Source: a virus (lineage: Duplodnaviria; Caudoviricetes). Taken from it: 64,000 bases of DNA. Shown one piece after another: positions 8,891-62,605 of this stretch. Both the position numbers and the translations under genes were made by a program. The stretch lies in IMG/VR virus record IMGVR_UViG_3300021124_000001; one strand, given 5' to 3'. Position 1 is the first letter of the stretch. The number at the start of each line of letters is the position of its first letter. A model generated the notes under the pieces. That model saw only the letters and a program-made list of their open reading frames with translations, did no database searches and was not told the origin of the DNA.

Positions 8891-9925
8891 ATGAGTATTC
8901 TAGATAAAATTAAAAAGAATAGTAGCATTAAAGATTCTGCTATTCTATCCAAATCCAAATTCTTCACAGATAAGGATATGATTCCAACGGCAGTTCCTGC
9001 CATCAACATTGCTCTCTCAGGTAAACTTGATGGTGGTCTAACTCCAGGTCTTACAATGTGGGCCGGTCCATCAAAACACTTTAAGACAGCATTTTCTTTA
9101 TTGATGGCCAAATCTTACCTGGACAAATATGAAGACGCCGCATTACTTTTTTACGACAGCGAATTTGGAACGCCTCAGTCTTACTTTGATAGTTTCGGTA
9201 TCGATACTGATAGAGTTTTACATACTCCTCTCACTGATATTGAACAATTAAAGTTTGATGTGATGAAACAACTGACCGGATTGGAACGTGGTGAACACCT
9301 CATCATTGTCATTGATTCTATCGGTAACTTGGCATCTAAGAAAGAAGTTGAAGATGCTTTATCTGAGAAGTCTGTGGCCGATATGTCACGAGCAAAACAA
9401 GTCAAGAGTTTGTTCCGTATGGTAACACCACACTTGTCGTTGAAAGATATTCCAATGATTGTTGTGAATCACACATACAAAGAAATTGGCATGTTCCCTA
9501 AAGATATTGTTGGTGGCGGTACAGGTTCATATTACTCTGCTGACAACATTTTCATCTTGGGTCGCCAGCAAGAAAAAGAAGGCACCGAGATTGTCGGTTA
9601 CAATTTTATTATCAACGTAGAAAAGTCTCGTTATGTTAAAGAGAAATCTAAAATACCTGTCTCTGTATCTTTTGACGGTGGCATTAGTAAGTGGTCTGGC
9701 TTACTTGACATTGCCCTTGAATCTGGACACGTTATCAAACCATCAAATGGATGGTATTCTAAAGTGGACAAAACTACTGGTGAAGTAGATGAGAAAAAGT
9801 ATCGCATCAAAGATACTGACACCAAAGAGTTTTGGACTTCTATTGTTGAAGATGAAACGTTCCAACAATACGTATCGGACAAGTATGCCATTGCAACTGG
9901 CGCAATCATGCAGGAAGAAGAATGA
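8891..9925 (+). CDS. uvsX: RecA-like recombinase UvsX
   Basis: AGPSKHFKT, YDSEFG, DSIGNLASKKE. Confidence 0.97.
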   Translation: MSILDKIKKNSSIKDSAILSKSKFFTDKDMIPTAVPAINIALSGKLDGGLTPGLTMWAGPSKHFKTAFSLLMAKSYLDKYEDAALLFYDSEFGTPQSYFDSFGIDTDRVLHTPLTDIEQLKFDVMKQLTGLERGEHLIIVIDSIGNLASKKEVEDALSEKSVADMSRAKQVKSLFRMVTPHLSLKDIPMIVVNHTYKEIGMFPKDIVGGGTGSYYSADNIFILGRQQEKEGTEIVGYNFIINVEKSRYVKEKSKIPVSVSFDGGISKWSGLLDIALESGHVIKPSNGWYSKVDKTTGEVDEKKYRIKDTDTKEFWTSIVEDETFQQYVSDKYAIATGAIMQEEE

Positions 9926-43608: not shown

Positions 43609-43617
43609 TGTAGTTCC

Positions 43618-43728: not shown

Positions 43729-43737
43729 TGTAGTTCC

Positions 43738-43836: not shown

Positions 43837-43895
43837 GGATGGATTGTAACCGAAGTGGATGGATTTTGCAAGCGATACTTGACCGGATTGTAGTG

Positions 43896-48063: not shown

Positions 48064-48501
48064 ATGAAATATGTATATATTACGGCCGAGTTTAATAAAA
48101 AAATGTGTGAGATTTTTGAAGTTGATTATACGCCGACAGATACAACAAGATTTTTACTAAACAAAACCGAATCCATAATGCCTGTTAACATTGGTATTGA
48201 TATTGGTGTATTTGGTAAAGACCCATGGAACAAAGGTAAAAATACTGGACCATTATCAGAATCACACAGAAAATCATTATCATTGGCGGCAAAAAATTAT
48301 AAGAGAACACCAGAGCATCAAGAAAATAATAGAATCGCAAGGTCAGATTCTTGGTCAGTAACTAATCCAAAAGGTGAAACATTTACTATAAAAAGTATGA
48401 ATCATTTTTGTAAATGTAATCAATTAAATGCAGGACATATGACCTTGGTATCTCAAGGTAAAAGAAAACAACATAAAGGATGGACTTGTTCCAAAATATA
48501 A
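48064..48501 (+). CDS. NUMOD-type DNA-binding protein (homing-endonuclease derivative)
   Basis: PWNKGK, SESHRKSLS, KRKQHKGWTC; no nuclease motif seen. Confidence 0.7.
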   Translation: MKYVYITAEFNKKMCEIFEVDYTPTDTTRFLLNKTESIMPVNIGIDIGVFGKDPWNKGKNTGPLSESHRKSLSLAAKNYKRTPEHQENNRIARSDSWSVTNPKGETFTIKSMNHFCKCNQLNAGHMTLVSQGKRKQHKGWTCSKI

Positions 48502-48698
48502 TGAACGAACGAATTAAAGAACTTGCTAAACAAGCAACTGTTCATGGCGATACTGAGCATCACCTGGACATACCGTTATGGTACTTGGAGCAGTTCGCCA
48601 AGTTGATTGTGAAAGAATGTACCAATATTGTGTTACACTATACTGATGTTGATGAAGGTGTAGCAGTGGCCAAGAAACATTTCGGAGTTGAAGAATGA
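48501..48698 (+). CDS. MNERI/KFAELIV/HFGVEE family member 1
   Basis: All three constant blocks. Confidence 0.85.
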   Translation: MNERIKELAKQATVHGDTEHHLDIPLWYLEQFAKLIVKECTNIVLHYTDVDEGVAVAKKHFGVEE

Positions 48699-48988
48699 AA
48701 ACATCAGATATTAAAAAAGGTATGCGTGTCCGTCTTGCCAATGGTTGGTACGGTACTATGATGGATAATATGCGAGGTACTACCCGGCTTGTAGAGGTAG
48801 AAGGCCATTACACTGAAACCGGGTCGGTATATTCACATGATATTATTGTGGCTCAAACACCTACAGGCTGGGAAGCCGTTGTGCATACTGCAAAAGAATT
48901 GCAGTGCAAAGAAATGAATGAAGCGTTTTTTGGTGGTGGTGAAGAAGACCTACCATTTAAAAATGGTCTAGAATATATGTCAAACTAA
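48695..48988 (+). CDS. SH3/KOW-like hypothetical protein
   Basis: IKKGMRV; starts within the GGAGTTGAAGAATGA junction. Confidence 0.75.
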   Translation: MKTSDIKKGMRVRLANGWYGTMMDNMRGTTRLVEVEGHYTETGSVYSHDIIVAQTPTGWEAVVHTAKELQCKEMNEAFFGGGEEDLPFKNGLEYMSN

Positions 48989-49010
48989 GTATTGAATAAA
49001 GGAATATATT

Positions 49011-49553
49011 ATGCCAAACTGGTGCTCTAATGTTGTGGTTATCTCTCACGTTGAACCATCCAAACTGGATGTTATTCGTGATGCTGTTAAGGTAGCGGCC
49101 GAAGCCTCTACTGGTGAACATTTTTTCAATACTCTGGTGCCACGACCAGTAAATGAAGAAGAAAATTGGTATGAATGGAACGTGACCAATTGGGGTTGTA
49201 AATGGGATGTAGAGCCACAAATTACCGAAGATACTGGTGATTCTATTACTTTGACCTTTGATACCGCATGGGCACCACCAATTCAATTCTATAATGAGAT
49301 GGTCGAGCGTGATTATGAGGTTCGGGCATTCTATGATGAATCTGGTATGGCATTCGCTGGCATTTATGATAATGGCAATGACGATGATTATGAATATGGC
49401 AGTATGGACTCCAGTGAGATTGTAGATAATCTACCTCAAGAATTGGATGAAATGTTTGCTATCTCTGAGCAAAAGGCCGATTGGGAATCTGAAAACGAAG
49501 AACCTGATGTGGATGAAGCACAGGAATGGAACGATTTTGATCCAGAGTGTTGA
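49011..49553 (+). CDS. DUF1281/YubB ferredoxin-like protein
   Basis: MPNWCSN, WY.W...NWG.KWD, F.TAW.PP. Confidence 0.8.
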   Translation: MPNWCSNVVVISHVEPSKLDVIRDAVKVAAEASTGEHFFNTLVPRPVNEEENWYEWNVTNWGCKWDVEPQITEDTGDSITLTFDTAWAPPIQFYNEMVERDYEVRAFYDESGMAFAGIYDNGNDDDYEYGSMDSSEIVDNLPQELDEMFAISEQKADWESENEEPDVDEAQEWNDFDPEC

Positions 49554-49563
49554 AAGGAAATAA

Positions 49564-50142
49564 ATGTTTGTCTTTGATGTTGAAACACTTGGTAAGGAAT
49601 CTAGTGCAGTGATATTATCCATGGCGGCCGTATACTTTGACCCGAGGGAAAAACCATCACCAAAAGATATGCGAGACACCGCATTTTTTGCCAAATTCAA
49701 TGTCAATGACCAAATTGCAAGGCTTGGTCGCACCATGACCAGGTCATCCATATCATGGTGGGGTAAACAATGTGACATTGTAAAAAACAAATCATTTAAA
49801 CCAAGCGCCGATGATATTATCATTGATGATGGTGTAGAAGCCATGAGACAATGGTCAAAACAATTTCCAATGCACGACAAATGTTGGGTGTGGGCACGTG
49901 GCAACCTCGACCAATTGGTGCTTGATTCGATTGAAGAAAAACTAGGCATTGAACCTGTGTTTTTCTTTAATCGTTGGCGTGATGTGCGTACCGCATTGGA
50001 CCTATTGAATGGGTCTGTGACTGGTTATGTGGATGTGGATTATCCTGGTTTCAATCCTGCACATCATATACAAAAACATGACCCAATTGATGATTGCATT
50101 TTTGACGCCATGCAGTTACTATACGGAAAGAATGTAGAATGA
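49564..50142 (+). CDS. DEDDh 3'-5' exonuclease, DexA-like
   Basis: FDVET, WARG..D, RDVRT, H.PIDD. Confidence 0.85.
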   Translation: MFVFDVETLGKESSAVILSMAAVYFDPREKPSPKDMRDTAFFAKFNVNDQIARLGRTMTRSSISWWGKQCDIVKNKSFKPSADDIIIDDGVEAMRQWSKQFPMHDKCWVWARGNLDQLVLDSIEEKLGIEPVFFFNRWRDVRTALDLLNGSVTGYVDVDYPGFNPAHHIQKHDPIDDCIFDAMQLLYGKNVE

Positions 50143-50360
50143 ACGAACGAATTGAACAAATTATTGAACAGGCATATTGCGATTTACATAAACAGGATCC
50201 AAATAGATTTTTTGGTGAAAGAACTATTGCTAAAAAAGTAGCCGAGTTGATTGTCCAAGATTGTGCCAATTTTGTGCGTGAAACATATGACCACGAGGCG
50301 GCAGAATCTATCGCATGGACAATGGAGATTAATTATGGTTTACACGGAGATTATGCATGA
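50139..50360 (+). CDS. MNERI/KFAELIV family member 2 (divergent C-terminus)
   Basis: MNERIEQ, KVAELIVQDC. Confidence 0.8.
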   Translation: MNERIEQIIEQAYCDLHKQDPNRFFGERTIAKKVAELIVQDCANFVRETYDHEAAESIAWTMEINYGLHGDYA

Positions 50361-50519
50361 AAACAATTTTTGATAAAGAGTATGATTCGGAATCATTGTG
50401 TGATTTGAGCCGAGATGTCCATGAGGCATTCAACAATGATTTTAATCCAACAGTAGCCGACATACCAAAAGACGAGTATGGCTTCCATGAAGGCCGGTTC
50501 ATTGTCACAATAAAATGGG

Positions 50520-50581
50520 TGTTGTAAATTAACAACAAGCATACCAAAAGTCCTTGACGGACCGTCCAGATGTGCTATAAT
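50520..50581 (+). promoter_or_regulatory. palindrome plus sigma70 promoter
   Basis: TGTTG-N8-CAACA 50520-50537; TTGACG at 50554 ... TATAAT. Confidence 0.85.
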
Positions 50582-50609
50582 TGCCACTTATTCGATTGAT
50601 TAGGACACT

Positions 50610-50858
50610 ATGAGAACCAAGCAAATTGTTCAAGGGCTTAAAAATAGCCAGCGTATACGTGCCATTGTGAATGGTGTTGGATTTTATACAACCGTACAAG
50701 ATGCCCTGGCTGGTCCATTTACTACGCAAACCTCGGCAGTTAATGTTGTATTGCATGAGATTGGTTCAAATAAATTAACTGGTTTTGGTCGAACCGTTAA
50801 AGTTTATAATAGCTATATGGAAGCTGTTAATTTCAACATTCAAATTGATTTGGTTTAA
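50610..50858 (+). CDS. hypothetical protein
   Basis: AGGA RBS after promoter. Confidence 0.75.
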   Translation: MRTKQIVQGLKNSQRIRAIVNGVGFYTTVQDALAGPFTTQTSAVNVVLHEIGSNKLTGFGRTVKVYNSYMEAVNFNIQIDLV

Positions 50859-50868
50859 GGAGATAATC

Positions 50869-51321
50869 ATGGGTTTAGATATGTACTTGTCGGCACGTAA
50901 ATATGTTTCTGATTTTGGTTTTAAACCAGAAGATACTAAACTAAATGCATCGATTAAAGAATCATTGGGTTTTGGTCCTAATGAATTTGGCCACATTTAT
51001 GTTGAATTAGAAGTGGCATATTGGCGTAAAGCAAACCAGATTCACGCATGGTTTGTGAATAATGTCCAAGATGGTGAAGACGATTGTGGAAATTATTATG
51101 TTTCCCGCGAACAAATTAGTGAATTGGTTAATCTGTGTTCGGAAGCCATTGATAATAAAGACTCCGAATTATTGGAACCAAAAAGTGGTTTCTTTTTTGG
51201 TTCGACCGATGTGGATGAATACTACTGGGACGAATTGAAACGCACCAAAATCGTCCTCAATCAAATTTTGAATGACAAACGACTGGAAGATTGTTCCTTC
51301 CAATATCATGCGTCCTGGTAA
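50869..51321 (+). CDS. phage hypothetical protein
   Basis: MGLDMYL, YWRKANQIH.WF, GFFFGST. Confidence 0.85.
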   Translation: MGLDMYLSARKYVSDFGFKPEDTKLNASIKESLGFGPNEFGHIYVELEVAYWRKANQIHAWFVNNVQDGEDDCGNYYVSREQISELVNLCSEAIDNKDSELLEPKSGFFFGSTDVDEYYWDELKRTKIVLNQILNDKRLEDCSFQYHASW

Positions 51322-51416
51322 TGTTGCATAATAATGATTATAATATAAATAGGTGTGTATCGCGTCCTGGCAGGGACCATACACTCTAGCCATCGAAACA
51401 ATAATCAAGGACTATT

Positions 51417-51827
51417 ATGACCAGCACTAATATGTATATACCCCAGTCGGAATGGGATGCAATGTCCCAAGCATTATCTACCATATTCGATGTAGATTAT
51501 GTACCAAGTAACACCGAACCTTATATTGTAACCCCATTATATTCTAATAATTCTGGACATTTCAATCTAGGCATAAAAAGAACGGCCGAACAAAAAAAAG
51601 CTCAAAGTACTAGACAAATAGGAATGAGATATTCCCATTTACGCAATGAAAAAATTGGATTTGCAAATTCTAAAAATTGGTTAATCACTGATCCTATCGG
51701 TATCACATATAGAGTTTTTAATTTAAGGCAATTTTGTCGAGAAAAAAACTTAAATCAATCTAGTATGACTATGGTAGCCAAAGGCAAATTTAAACAACAC
51801 AAGGGTTGGACCTGTCAGAAAATTTGA
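51417..51827 (+). CDS. NUMOD-type DNA-binding protein (paralog of 48064)
   Basis: NLRQFC, KGKFKQHKGWTC; TATAAATA at 51344. Confidence 0.7.
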   Translation: MTSTNMYIPQSEWDAMSQALSTIFDVDYVPSNTEPYIVTPLYSNNSGHFNLGIKRTAEQKKAQSTRQIGMRYSHLRNEKIGFANSKNWLITDPIGITYRVFNLRQFCREKNLNQSSMTMVAKGKFKQHKGWTCQKI

Positions 51828-51828
51828 T

Positions 51829-51890
51829 TGTTGTTTTTAAGCAACACCGTCCCGGATTGTCCTTGACTTAGGTGCCGGCCGTGTTACAAT
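51829..51890 (+). promoter_or_regulatory. palindrome plus sigma70 promoter
   Basis: TGTTG-N8-CAACA 51829-51846; TTGACT at 51863 ... TACAAT. Confidence 0.8.
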
Positions 51891-51922
51891 GGACTCTTAC
51901 TTTGATTGATGAAGGAATTTAA

Positions 51923-52786
51923 ATGTCTGGTATTTTTATGGTTGACGGTAAGTATGCGGCTAATATCAACGGCAAGATTGTAAAACGTGCTAATCGCCGT
52001 GCATTGGAGCGTATGTTAAAAGTAACTGATGCCGTTGTTGCACCCACTGAGTCCAAATTCTCTATTAACCAGCGTTTTGGTTTCGTCCGTGATATGGTTC
52101 AAATGCTTGCAAAAGGCGACCAAGCGTCCGTGGTTGTATCGGGACCTGGTGGTCTCGGTAAGTCACACACCGTATCAGCCGCTTTGACCGATGCCGGCTT
52201 CACTGATCTGTCCGTGCTTGACGAATTGGCTGATGGTGCCGTTGTGCCTGATAAATCTTTCCGTGTTGTTAAAGGTTATTCTACACCAAAAGGTTTATAT
52301 CGTGTTTTGTTTGAGAATCGTAATTCGGTTGTTGTATTTGATGACTGTGATTCGGTGCTCAAAGATCCAGTATCTCTTAACCTATTGAAAGCGGCTCTAG
52401 ATTCATATTCTCGCCGTATTATCTCTTGGCGTGCCGATACTCGTGATGAAGAATTGCCTAATGTGTTTGAATTTAAAGGCCGTGTTGTCTTTATCTCTAA
52501 CCTGTCGTCATCTTCATTGGATCAAGCCATTATCTCACGTTCACTAGCCGTTGACTTGTCTATGACTGCCAAACAAAAGGTTGAACGTATGCGATTCCTG
52601 CTTGACCAAAAAGACTTTATGCCTGAGTATGACAAACAACACAAGGTCGATGCAATGGACCTTATTGCTGAGTTATGCGATAATGTGAAAGAGTTGTCTT
52701 TGCGTACACTGATTCAGGTAACAAAGATTCGTAAATCTGCCGGTGCAAACTGGAAAGATTTGGCTGAATATGCTATTGTTGGTTGA
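51923..52786 (+). CDS. AAA+ ATPase
   Basis: GPGGLGKS, VVFDDCD, LKAALD, FISN, SR. Confidence 0.85.
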   Translation: MSGIFMVDGKYAANINGKIVKRANRRALERMLKVTDAVVAPTESKFSINQRFGFVRDMVQMLAKGDQASVVVSGPGGLGKSHTVSAALTDAGFTDLSVLDELADGAVVPDKSFRVVKGYSTPKGLYRVLFENRNSVVVFDDCDSVLKDPVSLNLLKAALDSYSRRIISWRADTRDEELPNVFEFKGRVVFISNLSSSSLDQAIISRSLAVDLSMTAKQKVERMRFLLDQKDFMPEYDKQHKVDAMDLIAELCDNVKELSLRTLIQVTKIRKSAGANWKDLAEYAIVG

Positions 52787-52804
52787 TTTTTTAAAGGATT
52801 TATT

Positions 52805-53011
52805 ATGTTTGAACAAACTGTAATGCAAAAAATTGGACATTTATTGAAAGAAGGCGAAACTGCTGAATTTCATAATGGTACATTGTTTCTCAATTCAGGC
52901 CGACCAACGGCCAATGATGTTTATATTGAATTGTGTAACATTTATCGTAAACGATTTATAAATTTCAATATTGTTACTGAAGGTGAATATGCGTTTGACT
53001 TTACTGCGTGA
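52805..53011 (+). CDS. hypothetical protein
   Basis: AAGGA RBS. Confidence 0.7.
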   Translation: MFEQTVMQKIGHLLKEGETAEFHNGTLFLNSGRPTANDVYIELCNIYRKRFINFNIVTEGEYAFDFTA

Positions 53012-53222
53012 GACTACAAAGTGGGCCGATGGTTCGGCCACCAACTTCATATATGCCTTTGTGGATAAACCGGGTAAACGGTTAGGTAATGCTGTTGGTT
53101 ATATCAATCACCTATCTGATGAGTATAAGGAATTTAGTAAGCCAATGGTGATTGATATGAAGGATAGGACCTTTGTAGAGGTAGGTAATATCAAATTTGA
53201 ATTGGATACACCTATTCATTGA
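52989..53222 (+). CDS. hypothetical protein
   Basis: AGGTG RBS; LRETTKW. Confidence 0.7.
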   Translation: MRLTLLRETTKWADGSATNFIYAFVDKPGKRLGNAVGYINHLSDEYKEFSKPMVIDMKDRTFVEVGNIKFELDTPIH

Positions 53223-53279
53223 AAGCGGCACACCGCTATCTTATACACCATTTTTAAAATTGTCAAGGTAACTTTTGGT

Positions 53280-53504
53280 ATGAATGAAAAAATTCAAAAA
53301 CTAATGGGTAAGGCTCTAGATAGCGAAATGCGGCGAACCTGGGATACCATGACTTACGGAGACCTATTACAGTTTAGTGAAAAGTTCGCCGAGTTGATTG
53401 TTCGGGAATGTATGTATGTAGGTCGCTTATCTCAGATTAACAACGGCCTTGTTGATTCAGATATCAAAGACCATTTTTACGGAGTTGAAGATGAACGAGA
53501 CTGA
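53280..53504 (+). CDS. family member 3
   Basis: MNEKI, EKFAELIVREC, HFYGVE. Confidence 0.85.
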   Translation: MNEKIQKLMGKALDSEMRRTWDTMTYGDLLQFSEKFAELIVRECMYVGRLSQINNGLVDSDIKDHFYGVEDERD

Positions 53505-53586
53505 AATTAAATTACTAATCGTCGGCACCATTATGCTTGGAGCAGGCATGATGTGGTTGGGCAATATCTTAGGGAGATTAGCATGA
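53491..53586 (+). CDS. 31-aa membrane peptide (cargo)
   Basis: MNETEIKLLIVGTIMLGAGMMWLG...; starts at the GGAG junction. Confidence 0.65.
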   Translation: MNETEIKLLIVGTIMLGAGMMWLGNILGRLA

Positions 53587-53828
53587 GCAAAAGAATGAGA
53601 GAACTTGCCGAACAGGCTGGATTTCAATACATTAAAGATGAAGGCATTGGCTGGGCTGGAAATTACAATGACAGTTTACCCAAGTTCGCCGAGTTGATTG
53701 TTCGGGAATGTATCGGATGTTGTGAACAAGTTATTAGTGATCCTGTTCCTAACTATATTGACACTTGGTTAAATGGTGGTTCGCAATGTATTGACGAAAT
53801 TAAACAACATTTCGGAGTTGAACGATGA
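53583..53828 (+). CDS. family member 4
   Basis: RMRELAEQAG, KFAELIVREC, HFGVER. Confidence 0.85.
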   Translation: MSKRMRELAEQAGFQYIKDEGIGWAGNYNDSLPKFAELIVRECIGCCEQVISDPVPNYIDTWLNGGSQCIDEIKQHFGVER

Positions 53829-54052
53829 AAGTCATTATTGAAAAACCGGATGGATCACCATATCTCACAGTAAGTGATGATAGACTAATGGTGTCTGTTC
53901 AAATGCACGATTGTGTGTGGATAGGTGAGCCAGTAAAGATTCACTTTGACCGCAGAACCATACCAGCACTGATTGATGCGTTAAGCAGATTGAATCGTGG
54001 CGAACTTGACACAACCATTCGCACACACCACTTTAACCAGGATATAGAATGA
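53825..54052 (+). CDS. unrelated cargo ORF
   Basis: ATGA overlaps at both ends. Confidence 0.75.
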   Translation: MKVIIEKPDGSPYLTVSDDRLMVSVQMHDCVWIGEPVKIHFDRRTIPALIDALSRLNRGELDTTIRTHHFNQDIE

Positions 54053-54285
54053 AAAAGATACCAATGTTAGAACGGTTCGCCGCACAAAGTCTTGTTGAAC
54101 ACGATGGTGAGTTGATATTCAGCAAAGAAAAGTTCGCCGAGTTGATTGTGCGTGATACATTAGACCAAGTTGCTGAATTTAGTCGTCTAACAAAGGCATA
54201 TCAAACACAAGGCATTGATCCCGAGATTGATGTTACCCGAGAAGTTTTGAAAAACTATGGGTTTACAAGATTTCCCAGGAGTTGA
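54049..54285 (+). CDS. family member 5
   Basis: EKFAELIVR; followed by GGAGTTGAAGAATGA out of frame. Confidence 0.8.
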   Translation: MKKIPMLERFAAQSLVEHDGELIFSKEKFAELIVRDTLDQVAEFSRLTKAYQTQGIDPEIDVTREVLKNYGFTRFPRS

Positions 54286-54288
54286 AGA

Positions 54289-54516
54289 ATGAACGAACGA
54301 ATTCGAGAACTTGCCGAACAGTCCAGAGAAAAGAAATATGATTACGGTGCTAGAGAAGGTGAAAGTCATTACATTTATGTATTCAATGAAGAAAAGTTCG
54401 CCGAGTTGATTGTCAAGGAATGTCAAACTCGTGTAGAACAATATATCTGTGATTGCGGCGAGATTGGTTCATTGCCTGATGCTGTGATTATGAAACATTT
54501 CGGAGTTGAAGAATGA
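54289..54516 (+). CDS. family member 6
   Basis: All three blocks. Confidence 0.88.
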   Translation: MNERIRELAEQSREKKYDYGAREGESHYIYVFNEEKFAELIVKECQTRVEQYICDCGEIGSLPDAVIMKHFGVEE

Positions 54517-54785
54517 TTGATTACTTCCAAGCACTTAAAGAAATGCACCAGGGCAATGTGGTCAAATATGTGGGCACAGTAAATGGTAATGTGATGAGCG
54601 ATAATGGTGCCAGTTTTTGTATGTGTCGTGGTTGTATCTTTCGATTCGACGATGGAGTAATCAAGTGGAACAAGTTGGGATATATGGTTTACGATCCAGA
54701 CTACCGTTATGAACTAACAGGTGAAACTGTGGATCCAAGGGCATGGAAACCAGAAGAGACAAAAAAGCAAAAGGATAAAGAATGA
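54513..54785 (+). CDS. unrelated cargo ORF
   Basis: ATGA overlaps at both ends. Confidence 0.75.
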   Translation: MIDYFQALKEMHQGNVVKYVGTVNGNVMSDNGASFCMCRGCIFRFDDGVIKWNKLGYMVYDPDYRYELTGETVDPRAWKPEETKKQKDKE

Positions 54786-55186
54786 AAGACGATGATGTAA
54801 GAAAAGAGATTAGGCGTATAATGGAAAATCGTAAACACTATTCAAACACAAATAACCCTATTGATTTTCCAAAAATACAGGCAGGCGCTGATATCCATGC
54901 AGGTGATGGTGGTTATAGTATAGGCACACAAGAAAAGTATGAGGAGTTCGCTAAGGCTCGCAATAAGTCATTAGCCAACGCAAGAATTAGAGAACTTGCT
55001 GAACAGGCTGGATCAACCCATAAACAAAATCTCGGAGTATATCAATTTTATACAGATGAATTGGAAAAGTTCGCCGAGTTGATTGTTCAGGAATGTATCG
55101 AGGTCGTGGGAGACTGTTCCGATCAATTTGCTACACGGTCGCAGATTACTGAAGAAATTAAAGAACATTTCGGAGTTGAAGAATGA
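54782..55186 (+). CDS. family member 7, fused to a ~65-aa N-terminal extension
   Basis: Internal NARIRELAEQAG, EKFAELIVQEC, HFGVEE. Confidence 0.85.
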   Translation: MKDDDVRKEIRRIMENRKHYSNTNNPIDFPKIQAGADIHAGDGGYSIGTQEKYEEFAKARNKSLANARIRELAEQAGSTHKQNLGVYQFYTDELEKFAELIVQECIEVVGDCSDQFATRSQITEEIKEHFGVEE

Positions 55187-55590
55187 AATCATATAATGCA
55201 GTAAACGATTTACACATGGCCATGGCTCACGCTATTTACGAGGGCTTTCCTGAATATGAATACGAAAGCCGTGATTTCAACAACCCGGATAGAAATGCCC
55301 GAGTGGTTAAAAAAACACGCCACACCGAATACAATCTAACAGTCAAGGCCATGTTTCCTCAAGTCTGGAGTTCAACTGCGCTGGGCTTTGGTGGCATTGG
55401 TGGACAGGCTATTACTACCGCATATACCACGGTGGTAGAAAGCGACATTGACTCAAGTTGTTGTGTGTATTTTGGTGGACAATTTGCTTACCGTATTGAA
55501 CGACCTAATACTCAATTCTTTGAGGACCTGTCCAAACAACAAATGACCAAGGTGTCGGAAGCAAAGAAAAGATATGAACGAACGAATTGA
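55183..55590 (+). CDS. unrelated cargo ORF
   Basis: FPQ.WSSTALGFGGIGGQAIT. Confidence 0.8.
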   Translation: MKSYNAVNDLHMAMAHAIYEGFPEYEYESRDFNNPDRNARVVKKTRHTEYNLTVKAMFPQVWSSTALGFGGIGGQAITTAYTTVVESDIDSSCCVYFGGQFAYRIERPNTQFFEDLSKQQMTKVSEAKKRYERTN

Positions 55591-55867
55591 AAAACTTGTC
55601 GAACAGGCTACTATTAAAACTTCTCATCGGTATATTACTTGGGGAAATACGGTTGCTACTCAGTCCGAAGAAGTCTTTGACAAGGAAAAGTTCGCCGAGT
55701 TGATTGTTCGGGAATGTGCTAAAATTTGTATTGAACAGAATGTATCCAACCTTGATTTAGATGTTATTCGTGAGTCTGGCAAATTTACTTTACAGGATCT
55801 TGCTACCAAATCGTGTGGTGAGAATTTGTCTAAACAGATTAGGAAACATTTCGGAGTTGAAGAATGA
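55574..55867 (+). CDS. family member 8
   Basis: All three blocks, longer inserts. Confidence 0.88.
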   Translation: MNERIEKLVEQATIKTSHRYITWGNTVATQSEEVFDKEKFAELIVRECAKICIEQNVSNLDLDVIRESGKFTLQDLATKSCGENLSKQIRKHFGVEE

Positions 55868-55959
55868 ACTATTTTATTGTTGGGCTGGTCATTGGACTTA
55901 TTCCAGGTATGTGTGTAGCGGCTAATTATCATTACAAAAAATGGAGAAATTCTAAATGA
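55864..55959 (+). CDS. 31-aa membrane peptide (cargo)
   Basis: MNYFIVGLVIGLIPGMCVAANY...; ATGA overlaps at both ends. Confidence 0.65.
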   Translation: MNYFIVGLVIGLIPGMCVAANYHYKKWRNSK

Positions 55960-56186
55960 ACGAACTAATCAATAACTTAAGGCTTGATGCTGGAATAGCA
56001 CAACTCAAAGATGATCCACGATTAGTGGTAATTGATCGTGAAGGCAATGTGATTGATCCATTGATTGGGTTAGAAAAGTTCGCTGAGTTGCTTGTTCGAG
56101 AATGTGCTAATATTGCCACGATAAATCAATATCAATCCTACACTCCTGGTCATTATATTTTGAATCATTTCGGAGTTGAAGAATGA
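55956..56186 (+). CDS. family member 9
   Basis: MNELI, EKFAELLVREC, HFGVEE. Confidence 0.85.
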   Translation: MNELINNLRLDAGIAQLKDDPRLVVIDREGNVIDPLIGLEKFAELLVRECANIATINQYQSYTPGHYILNHFGVEE

Positions 56187-56308
56187 ACGAAGACGAACGA
56201 GCAGGTTGGTGGGCTGTTGTATGCCTATTGATGGTTGGTGCGGCCGCCTACTTTACGATTTTTATGATCGTTTTCAGTTTGTTAAAACATTTTTTCGGAG
56301 TTGAATGA
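56183..56308 (+). CDS. 41-aa TM peptide framed by the family's first and last blocks
   Basis: MNEDER-[TM]-KHFFGVE. Confidence 0.7.
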   Translation: MNEDERAGWWAVVCLLMVGAAAYFTIFMIVFSLLKHFFGVE

Positions 56309-56454
56309 TGGACGCATTTGATTTTATATGGAATGCAGACCAAGAATCCAAAATCAATCAACTTGAAAAACGTATTGAACAGTTGGAAAAACAGAATGAA
56401 GTCCTATGTGAATGTATTTTATATTTCAAACAAAAATTAGGAGTTGAAGAATGA
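56305..56454 (+). CDS. 49-aa coiled-coil peptide ending in the junction block
   Basis: ...KQKLGVEE*. Confidence 0.7.
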   Translation: MMDAFDFIWNADQESKINQLEKRIEQLEKQNEVLCECILYFKQKLGVEE

Positions 56455-56918
56455 AACCTAAATTGTATATGTTAATTGGTGTACCCGGTTCTGGTAAGAC
56501 CACATGGATTTCCAAACAAGAATGGGCCAAAGATTGTTGTATCGTATCAACCGACAAATATGTTGAAGAATATGCCATGATGCAGGGCAAAACATATTCT
56601 GAAGTATTCCAAGAGTTTATGCCCACGGCTGTAGAGTTGATGACTGATAATGTTAGACTCGCAAGGGAAGATAACCAAGATGTTATTTGGGATCAAACCT
56701 CAACCACAGTATCAACCAGACGGAAAAAGTTTGCATTGTTGCCTGACCATTATGCCATTGCAGTAGTATTCCGTACACCGAGCCGTGATGAATTGGATGT
56801 CCGACTATCTGGACGCCCAGGCAAACACATTCCTAAAGAAGTGGTTGATTCTATGATTGCAAAGTGGGAAGAACCAACCGAAGATGAGGGCTTCAGTGAA
56901 ATTTGGTACGTCAATTAA
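56451..56918 (+). CDS. P-loop kinase (polynucleotide-kinase/AAA_33-like)
   Basis: GVPGSGKTT, STD, DQT, R...R, IP..V. Confidence 0.88.
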   Translation: MKPKLYMLIGVPGSGKTTWISKQEWAKDCCIVSTDKYVEEYAMMQGKTYSEVFQEFMPTAVELMTDNVRLAREDNQDVIWDQTSTTVSTRRKKFALLPDHYAIAVVFRTPSRDELDVRLSGRPGKHIPKEVVDSMIAKWEEPTEDEGFSEIWYVN

Positions 56919-56975
56919 GCCCTTGACAAATGCCACAAAGTGGTATACAATGGTCACACAAACTAAGGAGTTCCA

Positions 56976-57143
56976 ATGGGTAAGATGAAAGAAGTTGTTG
57001 ATAGAATCTTGGACTTGGTTCAAAATGATTATGATGATGAGGCCATTGCATTGATTGTTGGTGTGGACATCACAATTGTTGAACAAGTCAAACGCAATTC
57101 TGGTCTTTATGAAGAACCAAAAGACATAATTGAAAAATACTAA
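56976..57143 (+). CDS. small hypothetical protein
   Basis: TTGACA promoter at 56923, AAGGAG RBS, MGKMKE. Confidence 0.65.
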   Translation: MGKMKEVVDRILDLVQNDYDDEAIALIVGVDITIVEQVKRNSGLYEEPKDIIEKY

Positions 57144-57158
57144 TTTATGGAAATCGCA

Positions 57159-58298
57159 ATGAACAAAAATCAAAAAGCATTTATCTCTGCATCTGAGCGT
57201 AAACATGGCCGTGGTGCCACATTGACTCGTGACCAGATCAACGACATTGTTGAAGAAACTGGTTTGTCATTCCCATTCTGGTTGACCACAAAGTCTGAAT
57301 ATCGTGCTGGCCGTGGGCAGTATGAAGTGCCTACATTGGGCAATACACCTGTCGAGGTAGAATCTCCTGAGTTGGCTACTGTTGACCTTGCACAAGTTAT
57401 GGTTCTGCGCCAGCCTAAACTGAAAGATGAATCTGATACCTCTATCCCTGAAAAGTACCCTGATTATGTCCCTTTTGGATTTTTTAAAGATTTACGGAAC
57501 ATTGTTAAATCCTCTCTATTTTATCCTGTGTTTATTACTGGTCTTTCTGGTAATGGTAAAACCCTCATGGTTGAACAAGTTTGTGCCGAACTCCAAAGAG
57601 AGTGCATCCGTGTCAATATTAGTATCGAAACTGACGAAAGCGATTTGTTGGGTGGTCCTACTCTTGTCAATGGCAACGTTGTTAACCGTGATGGTCCTGT
57701 CATTATCGCTATGAAGCGTGGTGCCATTCTATTGATTGACGAAGTTGACCGTGGTTCTAATAAACTAATGTGCTTGCAAGGTATTCTTGAGGGTAAGCCA
57801 TACTACAACAAGAAATCTGGTGAGTTGGTGCATCCTGCTCCTGGCTTCAACATCATTGCTACTGCTAACACTAAAGGCCGTGGTTCTGATGAGGGCAAGT
57901 ATCTATCTCAGATTCTTGATGATGCATTCTTGGAACGTTTCCCTATTACTGTAGAACAGGAATATCCTGACAGCAGAACAGAGACTAAGATTCTTACACC
58001 ATTGATTAAGGACGAAGACTTTGTTAAGTGCCTTGTTATGTGGGCTGAAGTGGTCCGTAAGTCATTCGATGAAGATGCAACCGATGAAGTTATCTCTACT
58101 CGCCGTTTGGTGCATATTGCAAAAGCATATGAAATCTTTGGTGAACGTATGAAGGCTATCAAATTGTGTGTGAATCGTTTCGATGAAGAAACCAAGACTG
58201 CATTCCTTGACCTGTATACAAAAGTTGATGCAAAGATCAATGCACCTGAAGCGCCTGCTGTTCCAACGCCAAAAGTTGATGAAGAAATTCCATTTTAA
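57159..58298 (+). CDS. CobS/MoxR-like AAA+ ATPase
   Basis: GLSGNGKT, LLIDEVD, TANTKGRG, AFLERF, ISTRRL. Confidence 0.9.
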   Translation: MNKNQKAFISASERKHGRGATLTRDQINDIVEETGLSFPFWLTTKSEYRAGRGQYEVPTLGNTPVEVESPELATVDLAQVMVLRQPKLKDESDTSIPEKYPDYVPFGFFKDLRNIVKSSLFYPVFITGLSGNGKTLMVEQVCAELQRECIRVNISIETDESDLLGGPTLVNGNVVNRDGPVIIAMKRGAILLIDEVDRGSNKLMCLQGILEGKPYYNKKSGELVHPAPGFNIIATANTKGRGSDEGKYLSQILDDAFLERFPITVEQEYPDSRTETKILTPLIKDEDFVKCLVMWAEVVRKSFDEDATDEVISTRRLVHIAKAYEIFGERMKAIKLCVNRFDEETKTAFLDLYTKVDAKINAPEAPAVPTPKVDEEIPF

Positions 58299-58308
58299 GG
58301 AGTGAGTT

Positions 58309-58656
58309 ATGATTAAGAAAATTCGTACAGGCAAACAAAATCGTCATGAAAAAATTACTGTTGCTTTGTTATCGGGTAAGCCAGTGGCTCCTGATGATAT
58401 TAAAGCGTTGTTTAAGGGCACTGACCAAGAAGCCGTGTTGTACCGACTGAGTACAAACATCTATAATATTCGGCGTGATGGTGGTATCATACGTGTTCAA
58501 AAAAATGGGCGAGCGGTATCATCCTATCAATTGATGAACCCACAAGATTTCAATGCCGATGGCCGTTTTGTTGGTCGTAAATCAGCCGAATCAGTAAATA
58601 AAACTGTTGAAGTTAATCCAACAGAAATCATTGTAGATGAATTGGAAACAGTATGA
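58309..58656 (+). CDS. hypothetical protein, possible winged HTH
   Basis: RLSTNIYNIRRDG.II...Y.L pattern. Confidence 0.6.
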   Translation: MIKKIRTGKQNRHEKITVALLSGKPVAPDDIKALFKGTDQEAVLYRLSTNIYNIRRDGGIIRVQKNGRAVSSYQLMNPQDFNADGRFVGRKSAESVNKTVEVNPTEIIVDELETV

Positions 58657-58856
58657 ACGAAAAAGGTATAGTGATTCCTTATGAAGTGGCTGATGGTATT
58701 ATTTTGGCTGGTTTGATTGACCAACGTGCATACCTCACTGAAGAATTGCGAGCAAATGAGGAAGAACTCTCGTGGTTGCATCCTGAAGATATTGTCCGTA
58801 ACAAGAAACTTATCAAGGCATTGACAAAGATTATCCATTACTATGGAGGTGAATGA
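58653..58856 (+). CDS. hypothetical protein
   Basis: ATGA coupling. Confidence 0.7.
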   Translation: MNEKGIVIPYEVADGIILAGLIDQRAYLTEELRANEEELSWLHPEDIVRNKKLIKALTKIIHYYGGE

Positions 58857-59030
58857 TGAGTTCACTTGATGCTTTGAGAATTGTTTTTGGTCTTTCTTGT
58901 TTTATTGGTGCAACTGTCGGTTTGTATAATCAAGAATGGATGATGTCTTGTGCTTACTCTTTGTTCTATATTGCATTTGAGTTTGGTAATAAGATAGAAG
59001 AATAAATATTAAATTTGATGGTGAACAACA

Positions 59031-59252
59031 ATGAAAGAACGTATTAAAGAAATTGCGTTGCAGGCTGGTGGTAGCCATTACCCTGATGTTGGTGGCGATC
59101 TATTACAGAAGTTTGCAGACCTATTGATTGATGAATGTATTAGAGCAATACAAGAAACACCTAATCATCATTGCTACACTAGTTTTGATATTGCACAATC
59201 TGATGGTACTAAGGCTGAATGTATTGAACACATTAAAAAAATTCTAATGTAA
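59031..59252 (+). CDS. divergent family member 10
   Basis: MKERIKEIALQAG, QKFADLLIDEC; DNA blocks diverged. Confidence 0.75.
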   Translation: MKERIKEIALQAGGSHYPDVGGDLLQKFADLLIDECIRAIQETPNHHCYTSFDIAQSDGTKAECIEHIKKILM

Positions 59253-59261
59253 GGAAATTAA

Positions 59262-59522
59262 ATGGATCGATTAACAGAACACGACTTACGTAATGTTAGA
59301 TTTTTGATGTCATTGGGTAGTATTGGTCTGATGAGATTCATGCAACAAGCCAGCGAAGATGATATTCGTTATGCGAATGAGATTATGAGAATGTATAAAA
59401 GGGAAATGGAAGAGGCAGGCAGTAGGTTCACAGAAGATTCGTTCCTATCCCACAATCACAATGAGATTGAAGATTTTAGTGATGCAAAGTTGGTTCTGAA
59501 AAAGTTTATGTTAAACAAGTGA
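59262..59522 (+). CDS. hypothetical protein
   Basis: AAGGA RBS. Confidence 0.75.
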   Translation: MDRLTEHDLRNVRFLMSLGSIGLMRFMQQASEDDIRYANEIMRMYKREMEEAGSRFTEDSFLSHNHNEIEDFSDAKLVLKKFMLNK

Positions 59523-59537
59523 TACGGAGATTATATT

Positions 59538-59855
59538 ATGACTGCAAGTGAAATTAAATTAGAATCTGATAAAGTAACGGCGGAGTTGTTTGCTGATGAA
59601 GTGGCCCGCCAATGGCTTAAGAGTTGCCTGAACACCTCTATTTGCACTATCACCTTCACCAAGAAAAATGGTGATGAGCGTGTTATGAAGTGCACACTGG
59701 ACGAACAACATTTCCCACCAATCCAAAAAGAAGCCGCAGAGGTCGGTGAAGTTCGTCAGAAATCCAAGGACGCCCTGGCCGTTTTTGACATCGAGGCTCA
59801 AGCATGGCGTTCATTCCGTTGGGATTCCATCAAACGATTTGAAATGGCGCTATGA
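59538..59855 (+). CDS. WYL_2/SH3-fold (DUF2693-like) protein
   Basis: FTKKNG.ER.M.CT, VFD.E...WRSFR. Confidence 0.85.
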   Translation: MTASEIKLESDKVTAELFADEVARQWLKSCLNTSICTITFTKKNGDERVMKCTLDEQHFPPIQKEAAEVGEVRQKSKDALAVFDIEAQAWRSFRWDSIKRFEMAL

Positions 59856-60002
59856 AAGATACCCTTGACATTGCACTGGTACTGTGTTACAATCTAGCCA
59901 TACTTGCCGGCACTGCATACCTTGTGGAATTCCACAATTGGTCAGGCTGGTGGTTCCTTATGACACTCTGCTTCATGGTAAGCATTAAAACGGACGATTA
60001 AA

Positions 60003-60836
60003 ATGAAATTTGCACTATGCTCAGACCTCCATTTGGAGTTTGAAACACTTGAATTGAACAACACCGAAGGTGCTGATGTATTGGTGCTGTCCGGTGATAT
60101 TTGCCTTGCTAAAGATTTGTGGCATAAAAATACTGAGCGCAGTGAAATCTGGATGAAATTCTTTACTCATTGCTCTGAACAATTCAAAGATGTGATTTAC
60201 ATTATGGGTAACCATGAGCATTATCATGGTGACTTTGCTAAATCATATAATCAATTAAAAGAAGCATTGGCTGAACTGCCTAACATTCATGTGATGGAAA
60301 AAGAATTCATTCACATTGGTGATGTGACCTTTATCGCAGGTACTCTTTGGACTGATATGAACAAAGAAGACCCTAGTACCTTGTTTGGTATCAAGGGTTA
60401 CATGAATGATTATCGTATCATTGAAGACTCTGCACGTCCTGTTCACTTCCGTGATTCTGATGGTAACTTCCACACTCGCACATCTAAGTTTAGTCCTGAA
60501 CAGTCTGTTGAAGAACACAAGGCCATGTTGAAAGTGATTGATGAAGTCACTAAAGATAATGTCACTGGAAAGTTTGTGGTTGTTGGACATCATGCACCAT
60601 CTAAAATGTCCACTAAGCCAAAATATCAAGGTGATGTAATGGTCAATGGTGCATATAGTTCCGACTTGTCAGACTTTATCTTGGATCGTCCTATGATTAA
60701 AGTATGGACTCATGGCCATACACATGATACGTTCGATTATATGATTGGTTCCACTCGTATTGTTTGCCGGCCGAGAGGATATGCAAACTATGAAGATGTT
60801 GCCGATACTTTTAAATTGCAGTATATTGAGGTTTGA
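60003..60836 (+). CDS. calcineurin-like metallophosphoesterase
   Basis: SDLH, GD, GNHE, HHAP, HGHTH. Confidence 0.93.
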   Translation: MKFALCSDLHLEFETLELNNTEGADVLVLSGDICLAKDLWHKNTERSEIWMKFFTHCSEQFKDVIYIMGNHEHYHGDFAKSYNQLKEALAELPNIHVMEKEFIHIGDVTFIAGTLWTDMNKEDPSTLFGIKGYMNDYRIIEDSARPVHFRDSDGNFHTRTSKFSPEQSVEEHKAMLKVIDEVTKDNVTGKFVVVGHHAPSKMSTKPKYQGDVMVNGAYSSDLSDFILDRPMIKVWTHGHTHDTFDYMIGSTRIVCRPRGYANYEDVADTFKLQYIEV

Positions 60837-60837
60837 T

Positions 60838-61272
60838 ATGGCCATCGAAAAAGCCAAACCATCTCGTGAAGAAATCAAGGAAAATGCTCAACTTCAAATG
60901 GAAGAAGACATTGCCAATTGGAAAAAACTATACAATGAACATATCGATAAAGATATGTTGGATGAAGATGGTTATCCGACAGATGATGCATTGATTATTA
61001 TTGAGAATTGGTATTGGAATGATCCAAAAGGTTGGTTTGAGTTTATCAAATCACTTTGGCATCTGAGTTCATGGGGTTGGGGTGAGGGTGAAGAACCACA
61101 CGACTGGCGGAAAGATGAAATGTGTTATCGCTATCACATCTCCACTGCCGGTTGGTCTGGCAATGAAGCAATCATACATGCAATGCAAAAGAATGATTGG
61201 ATGTGGCATCTTAATTGGGTACAATCACGCCGTGGTGGCCACTATATTTTTGAATTGAAAGAAATTACATGA
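60838..61272 (+). CDS. Trp-rich hypothetical protein
   Basis: STAGWSGNE, RGGHY. Confidence 0.8.
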   Translation: MAIEKAKPSREEIKENAQLQMEEDIANWKKLYNEHIDKDMLDEDGYPTDDALIIIENWYWNDPKGWFEFIKSLWHLSSWGWGEGEEPHDWRKDEMCYRYHISTAGWSGNEAIIHAMQKNDWMWHLNWVQSRRGGHYIFELKEIT

Positions 61273-61970
61273 AAGTCTACATCTCAAACTATCGTAATCA
61301 TTGGTTAAGCCCATACACTATTCTAAAGAATGTGTGTTTTTGGGAAAAAGATCATGACGTATTCTATGACCTTGAAGAAAAAGGTAGCAAGTATACCAAA
61401 TGGGTAAACTTTCTTAATCCAATTTGCCAAGCATGGCAGAAGTTCTTAGACATCGTGCACCCAAGAATCAATTATGTGAAGATTGACAACTACGACACAT
61501 GGAACATGGACGGCACATTGACACCAATCATTCTACCGATGTTGAAGCAATTGAAGGCAACTAAACATGGTTCTGCTCCTGTTGATATGGAAGATGTTCC
61601 AGAATCAATGAGAACGATTGACCATGAAGAATATGAAGATCAAAAATCTTTTGACTTCTACCATGATCCAGATTTACAAAAGGTTCAATGTGATATTCAC
61701 GACCGTTGGGATTGGGTCTTGGATGAAATGATTTTTGCGTTCGAACACCTTGCTGATGATTCATGGCAAGATGCTTACCGTAGTGGTGTTATGGATTGGG
61801 GAAGCAAAGCGTGTGAATGGAACGAAAATGGCAAAGCAACCATGTTCCAAATGGTTGAAGGTCCAAACCATACATATAAATGTGACTATGATGGAATGAA
61901 AGTAGTTGAAGACCGTATTAATAATGGTTTGAGACTTTTTGGCCGGTATTTTAGAGGATTGTGGGACTAA
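61269..61970 (+). CDS. phage hypothetical protein
   Basis: DTWNMD.TL, W..VLDEMIFAF, GL.LFG.Y..LWD. Confidence 0.85.
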   Translation: MKVYISNYRNHWLSPYTILKNVCFWEKDHDVFYDLEEKGSKYTKWVNFLNPICQAWQKFLDIVHPRINYVKIDNYDTWNMDGTLTPIILPMLKQLKATKHGSAPVDMEDVPESMRTIDHEEYEDQKSFDFYHDPDLQKVQCDIHDRWDWVLDEMIFAFEHLADDSWQDAYRSGVMDWGSKACEWNENGKATMFQMVEGPNHTYKCDYDGMKVVEDRINNGLRLFGRYFRGLWD

Positions 61971-61971
61971 T

Positions 61972-62190
61972 ATGAACGAACGAATTAAAGAACTTGCTAT
62001 AGAGGCTGGGATGATTGTAGGTGAGGCAAATGGATTTGACATGACACGGTTGATGCCCAGAGAAGTAAAGTTCGCCGAGTTGATTGTGAAGGAATGTGTG
62101 GGCATTTACAACAAACTTGATAATGGTAATCAACATCTTGGCACTGACGATTACTTGGAAGCATTACAAAAACATTTCGGAGTAAAGTAA
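61972..62190 (+). CDS. family member 11
   Basis: MNERIKELA, KFAELIVKEC (exact 20-mer at 62068), HFGVK. Confidence 0.88.
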   Translation: MNERIKELAIEAGMIVGEANGFDMTRLMPREVKFAELIVKECVGIYNKLDNGNQHLGTDDYLEALQKHFGVK

Positions 62191-62387
62191 TGAATGCCGA
62201 ACGAGTTACAAACAAGAGATTAAACCGTAATGGATGGTACTGGGCAGTAAAGTTTGCTGACCCAGCGGATGCTGATGACCTAATCGCAACTTTGCCATTG
62301 GGCACAAAAGGATACTACCGGGCCAAGGGGCATACTGCTCGACCACATTGGGTTTTAGTTAAAAATACTTTCGGAGTTGAAGAATGA
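62190..62387 (+). CDS. cargo ORF ending in the junction block
   Basis: ...NTFGVEE*, TTTCGGAGTTGAAGAATGA. Confidence 0.75.
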   Translation: MNAERVTNKRLNRNGWYWAVKFADPADADDLIATLPLGTKGYYRAKGHTARPHWVLVKNTFGVEE

Positions 62388-62605
62388 AATCTCTCTTTAA
62401 ACAAACAAAGGTTGTGTATGATGCACACATGCAAGAATATGTTGTATTCTATAAGAATTGGTTGTTTTGGAAACATGAATGGACATATAAAGTATCTGAG
62501 TATCTTCCTGATGAAAGAGCAAAAGAACTTGCTGTAACCAGAGCAAAGAATATGTTAGATACCGTTGAAGTGTATCGTAGTCCCAAACCAGTATATTATT
62601 GTTAA
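62384..62605 (+). CDS. hypothetical protein
   Basis: Starts within the junction. Confidence 0.75.
   Translation: MKSLFKQTKVVYDAHMQEYVVFYKNWLFWKHEWTYKVSEYLPDERAKELAVTRAKNMLDTVEVYRSPKPVYYC

Follow-up and report, generated by a model that had tools for sequence, protein, structure and literature searches.

A 15–21-nucleotide gene-end sequence of a phage mini-protein family marks points of neighbor exchange and may act as a translational joint

We analyzed a 64,000-nucleotide (nt) stretch of DNA from an uncultured phage (IMG/VR record IMGVR_UViG_3300021124_000001, hereafter the window), in which a short sequence, called here the joint, recurs at gene ends. Within 15-21 nt, the joint holds the end of the upstream gene, a ribosome-binding site and the start of the next gene. 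We favor, with a probability of roughly 70%, the reading that it is the 3′ constant block of a multicopy mini-gene family, doubling as a Shine-Dalgarno (SD)/stop/start coupling joint and as a point at which neighboring genes are exchanged. Its DNA is conserved, the genes found downstream of it are diverse, and breakpoints between relatives, including those of the window's own population, fall at the constant blocks of the family.

The joint and the mini-gene family that it closes

Repeat analysis of the window revealed three repeated DNA blocks rather than one. A family gene consists of an N block (ATGAACGAACGAATTAAAGAACTTGC), a first variable segment, a middle block (AAGTTCGCCGAGTTGATTGT, coding for KFAELIV, for example at 54131..54150 on the + strand, with an equivalent block at 54392-54414), a second variable segment and the tail CATTTCGGAGTTGAAGAATGA. 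The corresponding protein pattern is MNERIKELAEQ - variable - EKFAELIVREC - variable - KHFGVEE*. Eleven paralogous copies start in the window, at 48501, 50139, 53280, 53583, 54049, 54289, 54782, 55574, 55956, 59031 and 61972.

The 15-nt core of the tail, GGAGTTGAAGAATGA, has eight exact copies on the + strand, at 48684, 54278, 54502, 55172, 55853, 56172, 56440 and 62373. In dinucleotide shuffles, 0.33 matches were expected at two mismatches or fewer, and a count of 11 was never attained in 100 of them. Exact copies of the 21-mer CATTTCGGAGTTGAAGAATGA begin at 48678, 54496, 55166, 55847 and 56166; all five positions had been given by a first-pass annotation of the letters alone, and the variants that it listed near 53480, 53808, 54278, 56294, 56440, 62173 and 62369 are likewise all present. 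The GGAG that it placed 7 nt 5′ of an ATG overlapping the TGA stop is present in every exact copy. For comparison, of the 22 genes in the window that bear GGAG outside the joints, 17 have it 5-8 nt 5′ of the ATG. ATGA overlaps make up 26 of the ~114 + strand junctions in the window; such an overlap between + strand open reading frames (ORFs) is found at all eight exact copies and at the variant at 53814, and the variant at 62173 has a TAATG overlap. The motif occupies ~11 of these ~114 junctions, all within 48.6-62.4 kb, so that calling it a universal junction, as had been done, was an overstatement: it is confined to the hyperplastic region.

Among the eight exact copies, five are in-frame family tails, one (54278) is out of frame and two end non-family ORFs. 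The first exact 21-mer joint (48678..48698; this and all the following joints are on the + strand) ends family gene 48501-48698 and starts the non-family gene 48695-48988. The next ones lie in a packed array of ~18 small genes with stop/start overlaps (53280..56918, + strand), which contains seven family copies. There, the joint at 54496..54516 leads from family gene 54289-54516 to the non-family gene 54513-54785, that at 55166..55186 from the 134-amino-acid (aa) fused family gene 54782-55186 to the non-family gene 55183-55590, that at 55847..55867 from family gene 55574-55867 to a 31-aa membrane-like ORF (55864-55959), and that at 56166..56186 from family gene 55956-56186 to a 41-aa transmembrane mini-ORF (56183-56308).

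Variants and shifted copies join further genes of the array. A form lacking one A, GGAGTTGAAGATG (GGAGTTGAAG-ATG; 53480..53495), lies in family gene 53280-53504, which runs on to ..GVEDERD*, and a 31-aa ORF starts behind it at 53491 (+ strand). The variant GGAGTTGAACGATGA (53808..53828, ..HFGVER*) leads from family gene 53583-53828 to gene 53825-54052. At 54272..54292, the 15-mer is exact but out of frame (..RFPRS*, stop 54283-54285): family gene 54049-54285, whose own tail has decayed (KNYGFTR), precedes it, and it provides the putative SD and start for family gene 54289-54516. The variant GGAGTTGAATGATG (56297..56311; also given as 56287) ends the non-family ORF 56183-56308 (..KHFFGVE*) and starts 56305-56454, and orthologues in two other contigs (L047 and L061) also have a tail. 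ORF 56305-56454, a non-family coiled-coil ORF, ends in turn (..KQKLGVEE*) with the exact 15-mer at 56440..56454 (also given as 56434, TTAGGAGTTGAAGAATGA), which starts the AAA_33 kinase-like gene 56451-56918 on the + strand. The product of this gene resembles AAA_33 and zeta-toxin-like P-loop kinases (Pfam E 5e-20). Beyond the array, the variant GGAGTAAAGTAATG (62173..62193; also given as 62167; ..HFGVK*, TAATG overlap) leads from family gene 61972-62190 to ORF 62190-62387, and this ORF ends (..KNTFGVEE*) with the exact 15-mer at 62373..62387 (also given as 62363, ACTTTCGGAGTTGAAGAATGA), which starts 62384-62605.

The motif had been said to end unrelated ORFs at 56183, 56305 and 62190. None of the three belongs to the family by its hidden Markov model (E 0.3 or worse), which agrees with that claim, but 56183-56308 and 62190-62387 begin with MNE..ER and MNAER, as family members do.

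No promoter-like site scoring at least 10/12 was found on the + strand at any joint or inside the 53.3-56.9 kb array, which is flanked by 10-12/12 sites at 51863 and 56923; perfect or near-perfect sigma-70-type sites lie at 46011, 47411, 50554, 56923, 59865 and 63409. Inverted repeats and terminator-like sites were sought at all joints and none was found, and the folding of six joints compared with shuffled sequence gave z values of -1.0 to +1.8, that is, no extra structure. The joints are not hairpins, and a hairpin, an attC site or a terminator at the joint was ruled out, none having been detected by the promoter/terminator, inverted-repeat and folding scans.

Ten of the family copies in the window code for proteins of 65-97 aa, most of them ~75 aa, and the eleventh (54782) for 134 aa; in this last gene (54782-55186), a 64-aa non-family N-terminal part is fused to a complete family domain. 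All copies are acidic (isoelectric points of 4.7-5.8). A database profile search, in which 8,000 candidates were scored, returned at least 7,995 family proteins, and the few given names by a source are almost all hypothetical; no Pfam or PHROG model was found for the family. An AlphaFold model (105 sequences, pLDDT 84) predicts a helix, a beta-hairpin, a long helix and a short helix. The PDB search with this model gave weak winged-helix-like resemblances and nothing better than E 0.4; without a significant PDB match, the predicted fold does not support a function. The size of the family and its shuffling suggest a role in host takeover or counter-defence.

The tail is also seen in other proteins. 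Another small-protein family (67-72 aa, ..KALD(E/D)LKAEYGVEE; contigs L102, L118, L072 and L182) always ends with the exact 15-mer and fails to match the MNERI/KFAELIV/HFGVEE profile, and two 195-aa ORFs (L200 and L201) end with ..IKHNGVEE. In L165, the tail of a family gene reads FGVEGVEE (GGAGTTGAAGGAGTTGAAGAATGA), a tandem duplication of GGAGTTGAA that looks like a slippage or unequal-exchange scar.

Conservation of the DNA beyond the peptide

The exact 18-mer TTCGGAGTTGAAGAATGA is present in at least 119 IMG/VR contigs. Two samples of the family were collected. The first, gathered without reference to tails by a codon-degenerate KFAELIVxEC pattern, gave 69 genes from new loci, and the second, fully independent, consisted of 80 loci around the CobS-like gene (57147-58298) and gave 124 genes, forming 100 clusters at 80% identity. 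Among the C-terminal ends of these 100 clusters were GVEE (37), FGVE (8), GVEK (5), FGVK (3) and others. Of the 37 GVEE ends, 32 carried the exact GGAGTTGAAGAATGA, where ~4% would be expected from the codon usage in the variable parts of the same family genes (p ~6e-40). Six further gene clusters had the 15-mer exact but frame-shifted (..TFRS*), like the window copy at 54278, and three free-standing 15-mers directly followed a TAA stop, non-coding and a pure ribosome-binding site. The nucleotide conservation of the joint thus exceeds what the peptide requires, and the first-pass claim that the DNA does not depend on the peptide is borne out by these three kinds of copies.

The six frame-shifted clusters are independent (L208, L035, L245, L186, L259 and other loci). 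The shift lies just 5′ of the tail, mostly as one additional A in the A-run before its CATTTC, and the 15-mer stays exact; it could be a recurrent slippage mutation, a homopolymer sequencing error or a programmed shift.

Codon choice is frozen in all three blocks. In the N block, AAC is used in 69/91 cases (background 0.29), CGA in 67/75 (0.14) and CTT in 56/86 (0.13); in the middle block, AAG in 47/63 (0.24), TTC in 64/92 (0.22), GCC in 73/90 (0.18), GAG in 63/75 (0.16) and TTG in 75/90 (0.29); in the tail, GGA in 65/73 (0.27) and GTT in 57/64 (0.40). The N and middle blocks are as strongly frozen at synonymous sites as the tail. Together, GGA and GTT give GGAGTTGA, which matches 7/8 of GGAGGTGA, the complement of the usual 16S rRNA 3′ end, and because of this match, the frozen codons of the tail could be explained by ribosome binding. 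The N and middle blocks may have been selected for recombination, homogenized by recombination or conserved for another reason.

RNA pairing between GAACTT of the N block and AAGTTC of the middle block was considered and rejected, as no covarying pairs were found by mutual information in 526 distinct family genes (maximum 0.125 bit, none on the GAACTT/AAGTTC stem), a test of low power, since the blocks hardly vary. The heptamer GAGTTGA is common to the middle block and the joint, in different reading frames, and in the middle block, it is created by the GAG and TTG choices. It has 22 + strand copies where ~6.5 were expected, nearly all of them inside family blocks or joints; this confinement led us to reject it as a genome-wide, Chi-like hotspot. 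Eight phage tRNA genes are found at 671-2076, including Gly(UCC), Leu(CAA) and Phe(GAA), which read the frozen codons GGA, TTG and TTC; the frozen codons AAC, CGA, CTT, AAG, GCC and GAG have no matching phage tRNA here, and the overlap may be a coincidence.

Exchange of neighboring genes and the explanations for it

Across all sequences compared, 290 exact joints were collected. Their upstream ORF is a family member in 234 cases (81%) and their downstream ORF in 83; the remaining 191 downstream ORFs, all non-family, form 146 clusters by blastp. The family share argues against a family-independent element: the joint is one of three recombination blocks of a single large mini-gene family. None of the array genes of the window (53.2-56.9 kb) has an orthologue in 80 syntenic relatives, in which the CobS-like protein is 71-86% identical. 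The orthologues of the genes starting at 48695, 54513, 56451, 62384 and 53491 (the 31-aa ORF) follow, in some other contigs, the joint or one of its variants, and the family gene before it is then another one: those of the 31-aa ORF behind the joint in L065 and L021, those of 62384-62605 behind other family genes in L032 and L116, and those of the kinase gene (56451) behind the joint in L188 and behind the variant GGAGTCGAAGGTG in L096. In other contigs, orthologues of 48695, 54513 and 56451 lie behind their own promoter-like site and ribosome-binding site.

Junctions were then compared in pairs from different contigs with at least 85% DNA identity on one side, using junctions of called genes as controls. 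Where the upstream sides were homologous, the downstream genes were unrelated in 13 of 22 pairs at motif joints and in 27 of 157 at other ATGA junctions (p 7e-5, the pairs being non-independent). Counted as upstream clusters, 7/16 had more than one downstream partner at motif joints compared with 13/81 at other ATGA junctions (p 0.02). Of the 13 discordant pairs, 12 have an identity of 85-100% that runs through the tail and is lost no more than 3 nt from the ATG on either side; behind one and the same family gene, L101, L245, L183 and L021 each have a different downstream gene. The reverse case comprises seven pairs, and in five of them, identity sets in between -19 and -5. The genes behind the motif are not fixed, and non-family ORFs carry it too.

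Exchange also occurs inside the family genes. Over the whole family, 49 of 68 clusters of variable segment 1 pair with more than one segment 2, as do 46/71 conversely, and the window copy at 53583 is a mosaic of L010-like and L078-like halves.

The same picture is found in variants from the same lake as the window (Trout Bog, the source of contigs L261-L282), whose identity to the window begins or ends sharply at each of the three blocks. From 54486 onward, a position within the tail of the 54289 copy, L269 and the window are 99.7% identical; upstream of this point, L269 has another family gene and, next to that, one of 334 aa. The match of L270 to the window is limited to the stretch between the middle block at 54391 and an N-block-like site at 54987, and that of L263 and L264 starts with the middle block at 54129. 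Other contigs of this lake hold the identical 90-aa gene (54513-54785) in different settings. Relative to the fused gene 54782-55186, L270 has the first 46 aa identical and a different family domain, the divergence starting from the N-block-like site near 54987.

Homology, rather than selection on random joins, is the probable cause of these breakpoints, and exchange at the joint would occur most simply by homologous recombination. Several points weigh against our reading as a whole. At cluster level, the breakpoint enrichment is modest and the numbers are small (7/16 and 13/81, as above), and downstream-anchored clusters show no enrichment (3/17 compared with 12/81). Ordinary junctions are mosaic too: in 12/27 (~40%) of the discordant control pairs, identity is lost 5 nt or less from the ATG, which means that selection for intact genes plays a part. 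An SD role covers only the GGA and GTT of the tail, which leaves the equally frozen N and middle blocks unaccounted for. The coupling itself is read from anatomy, namely GGAG-N7-ATG, the ATGA overlap and an unstructured context, and should be taken as predicted. Finally, all the comparison DNA comes from metagenome contigs, of which single ones may be chimeric.

In the strongest alternative, the joint is a translational device only and neighbors are exchanged by random illegitimate recombination followed by selection for intact genes. The multi-partner clusters among the controls (13/81 for ATGA junctions, 61/343 for all controls), the ~40% of discordant control pairs with an edge at the ATG, the unenriched downstream-anchored clusters and the fit of GGA and GTT to an extended SD pairing (GGAGTTGA with GGAGGTGA) would all be explained. 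We nevertheless consider this alternative unlikely. Upstream-anchored discordance is 2.7-fold higher at the motif, and a cruder census gave 12/23 clusters at the motif and 1/31 at neighboring controls, a contrast that is overstated, as many of those control junctions lie inside genes. The middle block, which has no translational role, is just as codon-frozen, and crossovers are most frequent there (49/68 clusters), and the same-lake variants break at all three blocks.

The apparent mosaics might instead be assembly chimeras joined at short repeats, which is very improbable. All the relatives are metagenome contigs, and several short ones (L264 and L272) start or end exactly at a block, indicating that assemblers do break there. 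Yet six independent assemblies, of different samples and years, contain the array (53280..56918) at 99.4-100% identity, the blocks (20-45 nt) fall far below the final k of 141 and the read length, and paralogues within the single window show the same pattern of blocks and variable segments. The least credible explanation, that paralogues simply share a conserved C-terminal peptide and that the motif owes its identical DNA to codon bias or recent common descent, could draw on the 81% of exact joints that belong to family members and on GAA and TGA being the commonest choices in any case, but it is already contradicted by the 15-mer codon test (32/37 exact ends, 4% expected from the same genes), by the frame-shifted and post-TAA copies and by the non-family ORFs that end with the motif, and the variable segments of the same genes are unalignable.

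Proposed mechanism, phage context and known systems

In the mechanism that we propose, the tail would encode the usual C-terminus HFGVEE and also supply the SD of the next cistron (GGAG, 7 nt before the ATG) together with the ATGA stop/start overlap. Because of this SD and overlap, any following gene would be translated within a long operon lacking an internal promoter, be it through re-initiation or through direct initiation. Being DNA-identical within and between phages, the tail would also act as a short homology tract, at which homologous recombination would exchange downstream neighbors and delete or insert whole mini-genes, and the N and middle blocks would likewise swap half-genes inside the gene. 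The UvsX-type recombination of the phage would act on these blocks; the window encodes a UvsX-like recombinase (8891..9925, + strand; phrog_97, E 1e-90), the phage's own homologous recombination protein. The first-pass image of a plug-in socket, behind which any recombined gene is expressed automatically, thus stands for the exchange of genes at the joint; automatic expression is what the anatomy would predict. Homing endonucleases were dropped as drivers of the exchange, as no nuclease domain was found in the larger neighboring ORFs.

The window is part of a freshwater T4-like myophage, and the family sits in its hyperplastic, early-type region. Besides the UvsX-like recombinase, it encodes a DNA polymerase, a DnaB-like helicase, a primase and a ribonucleotide reductase. 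The nearest named relatives are distant (34-35% identity to cyanomyophage proteins), and a search for cultured relatives with the array DNA and the protein of one family copy gave no match in 50,697 GenBank phage records. Identical DNA occurs in assemblies of several samples from one freshwater lake, one of them dated 2009. The region from 51.9 to 56.9 kb contains ~20 small + strand genes with overlapping stops and starts. A WYL_2 domain protein is encoded at 59538-59855. At 41350-44800, ~3.4 kb hold no ORF longer than 142 aa on either strand and matched no Rfam family, and the G+C content in the 42-44 kb bin is 45%, compared with ~38% elsewhere.

The closest known analogue is the promoter-early stem-loop (PeSL) cassette of T4-type hyperplastic regions, a repeated promoter-terminator unit with modular shuffling (PMC2839356, PMC4122927), which the joint resembles without being a member. 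Like the PeSL, the joint is a short sequence that recurs many times in T4-like hyperplastic regions, has a putative signal for expressing the gene behind it and sits at the breakpoints where relatives differ by insertion, deletion or replacement; recombination between direct copies of either would excise or insert single small genes. PeSL cassettes also form excised mini-circles. The joint is multicopy at 48.6-62.4 kb with coinciding exchange breakpoints, as a PeSL would be, but shows neither the strong sigma-70-like early promoter nor the terminator stem-loop. Whereas the PeSL is an intergenic transcription unit (sigma-70 promoter and terminator hairpin), the joint is 15-21 nt of coding sequence without promoter or hairpin that would act on translation (SD, stop and start), and its protein family has two further internal blocks that are likewise crossover points.

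Genes overlapping by ATGA are coupled by termination-reinitiation, and the removal of intragenic SD motifs lowered reinitiation in 4/5 Escherichia coli gene pairs (Huber et al. 2019, PMC6728339). The joint shares with such pairs the co-directed operon genes, the 4-nt ATGA overlap (or a 1-nt overlap) and the SD in the upstream 3′ end at a normal working distance. Ordinary coupled pairs have individual sequences, whereas at the joint one 15-mer is reused in at least 119 viral contigs before unrelated genes.

Integron cassettes (attC/attI, promoter Pc) are similar in idea, a slot where an inserted cassette uses shared expression signals. In contrast to them, the joint has no attC-type inverted repeat, no integrase match was found among the ORFs scanned in the window, the shared signal would be translational, and the exchange would be general homologous recombination. 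The gp38 tail-fibre adhesins of the T4 superfamily, with their glycine-rich motifs, resemble the mini-gene family in having, within one small gene, short conserved blocks between hypervariable segments, reportedly proposed as recombination points at which the segments are reshuffled (Trojet et al. 2011, PMC3157838). In gp38, which is a different protein with a different function, exchange is known only within the gene, and the motifs are not known to double as the ribosome-binding site of the next gene. In the literature search, no paper was found containing the DNA of the motif or the peptide strings of the family.

A more far-reaching version of the mechanism is tentative and, as a whole, rather doubtful. 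In it, the three codon-frozen blocks would be kept identical for recombination, so that the phages hold a combinatorial library in which halves 1 and 2 and the downstream neighbor are reassorted; single genes between two joints might be excised and re-inserted, in the manner of mini-circles, at the joints of co-infecting relatives; and each recombinant might be translated at once via the SD, stop and start of the joint. If this holds, the phages would have an equivalent of integron cassettes that is translational and recombinase-independent, and modular phage evolution by the 'linker' model would have a clear example in nature.

Phage genomes are mosaics, and it has long been debated whether exchange takes place at short conserved linkers or by random joins filtered by selection. 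Here, one 15-21-nt sequence found in more than 100 uncultured phages carries the putative translation signal of the next gene and is the point at which the neighbor changes, which makes the linker model directly testable on a concrete sequence. The joint would account for packed early operons gaining and losing tiny genes while keeping their expression, and the finding draws attention to a family of acidic phage mini-proteins that is very large and as yet unnamed.

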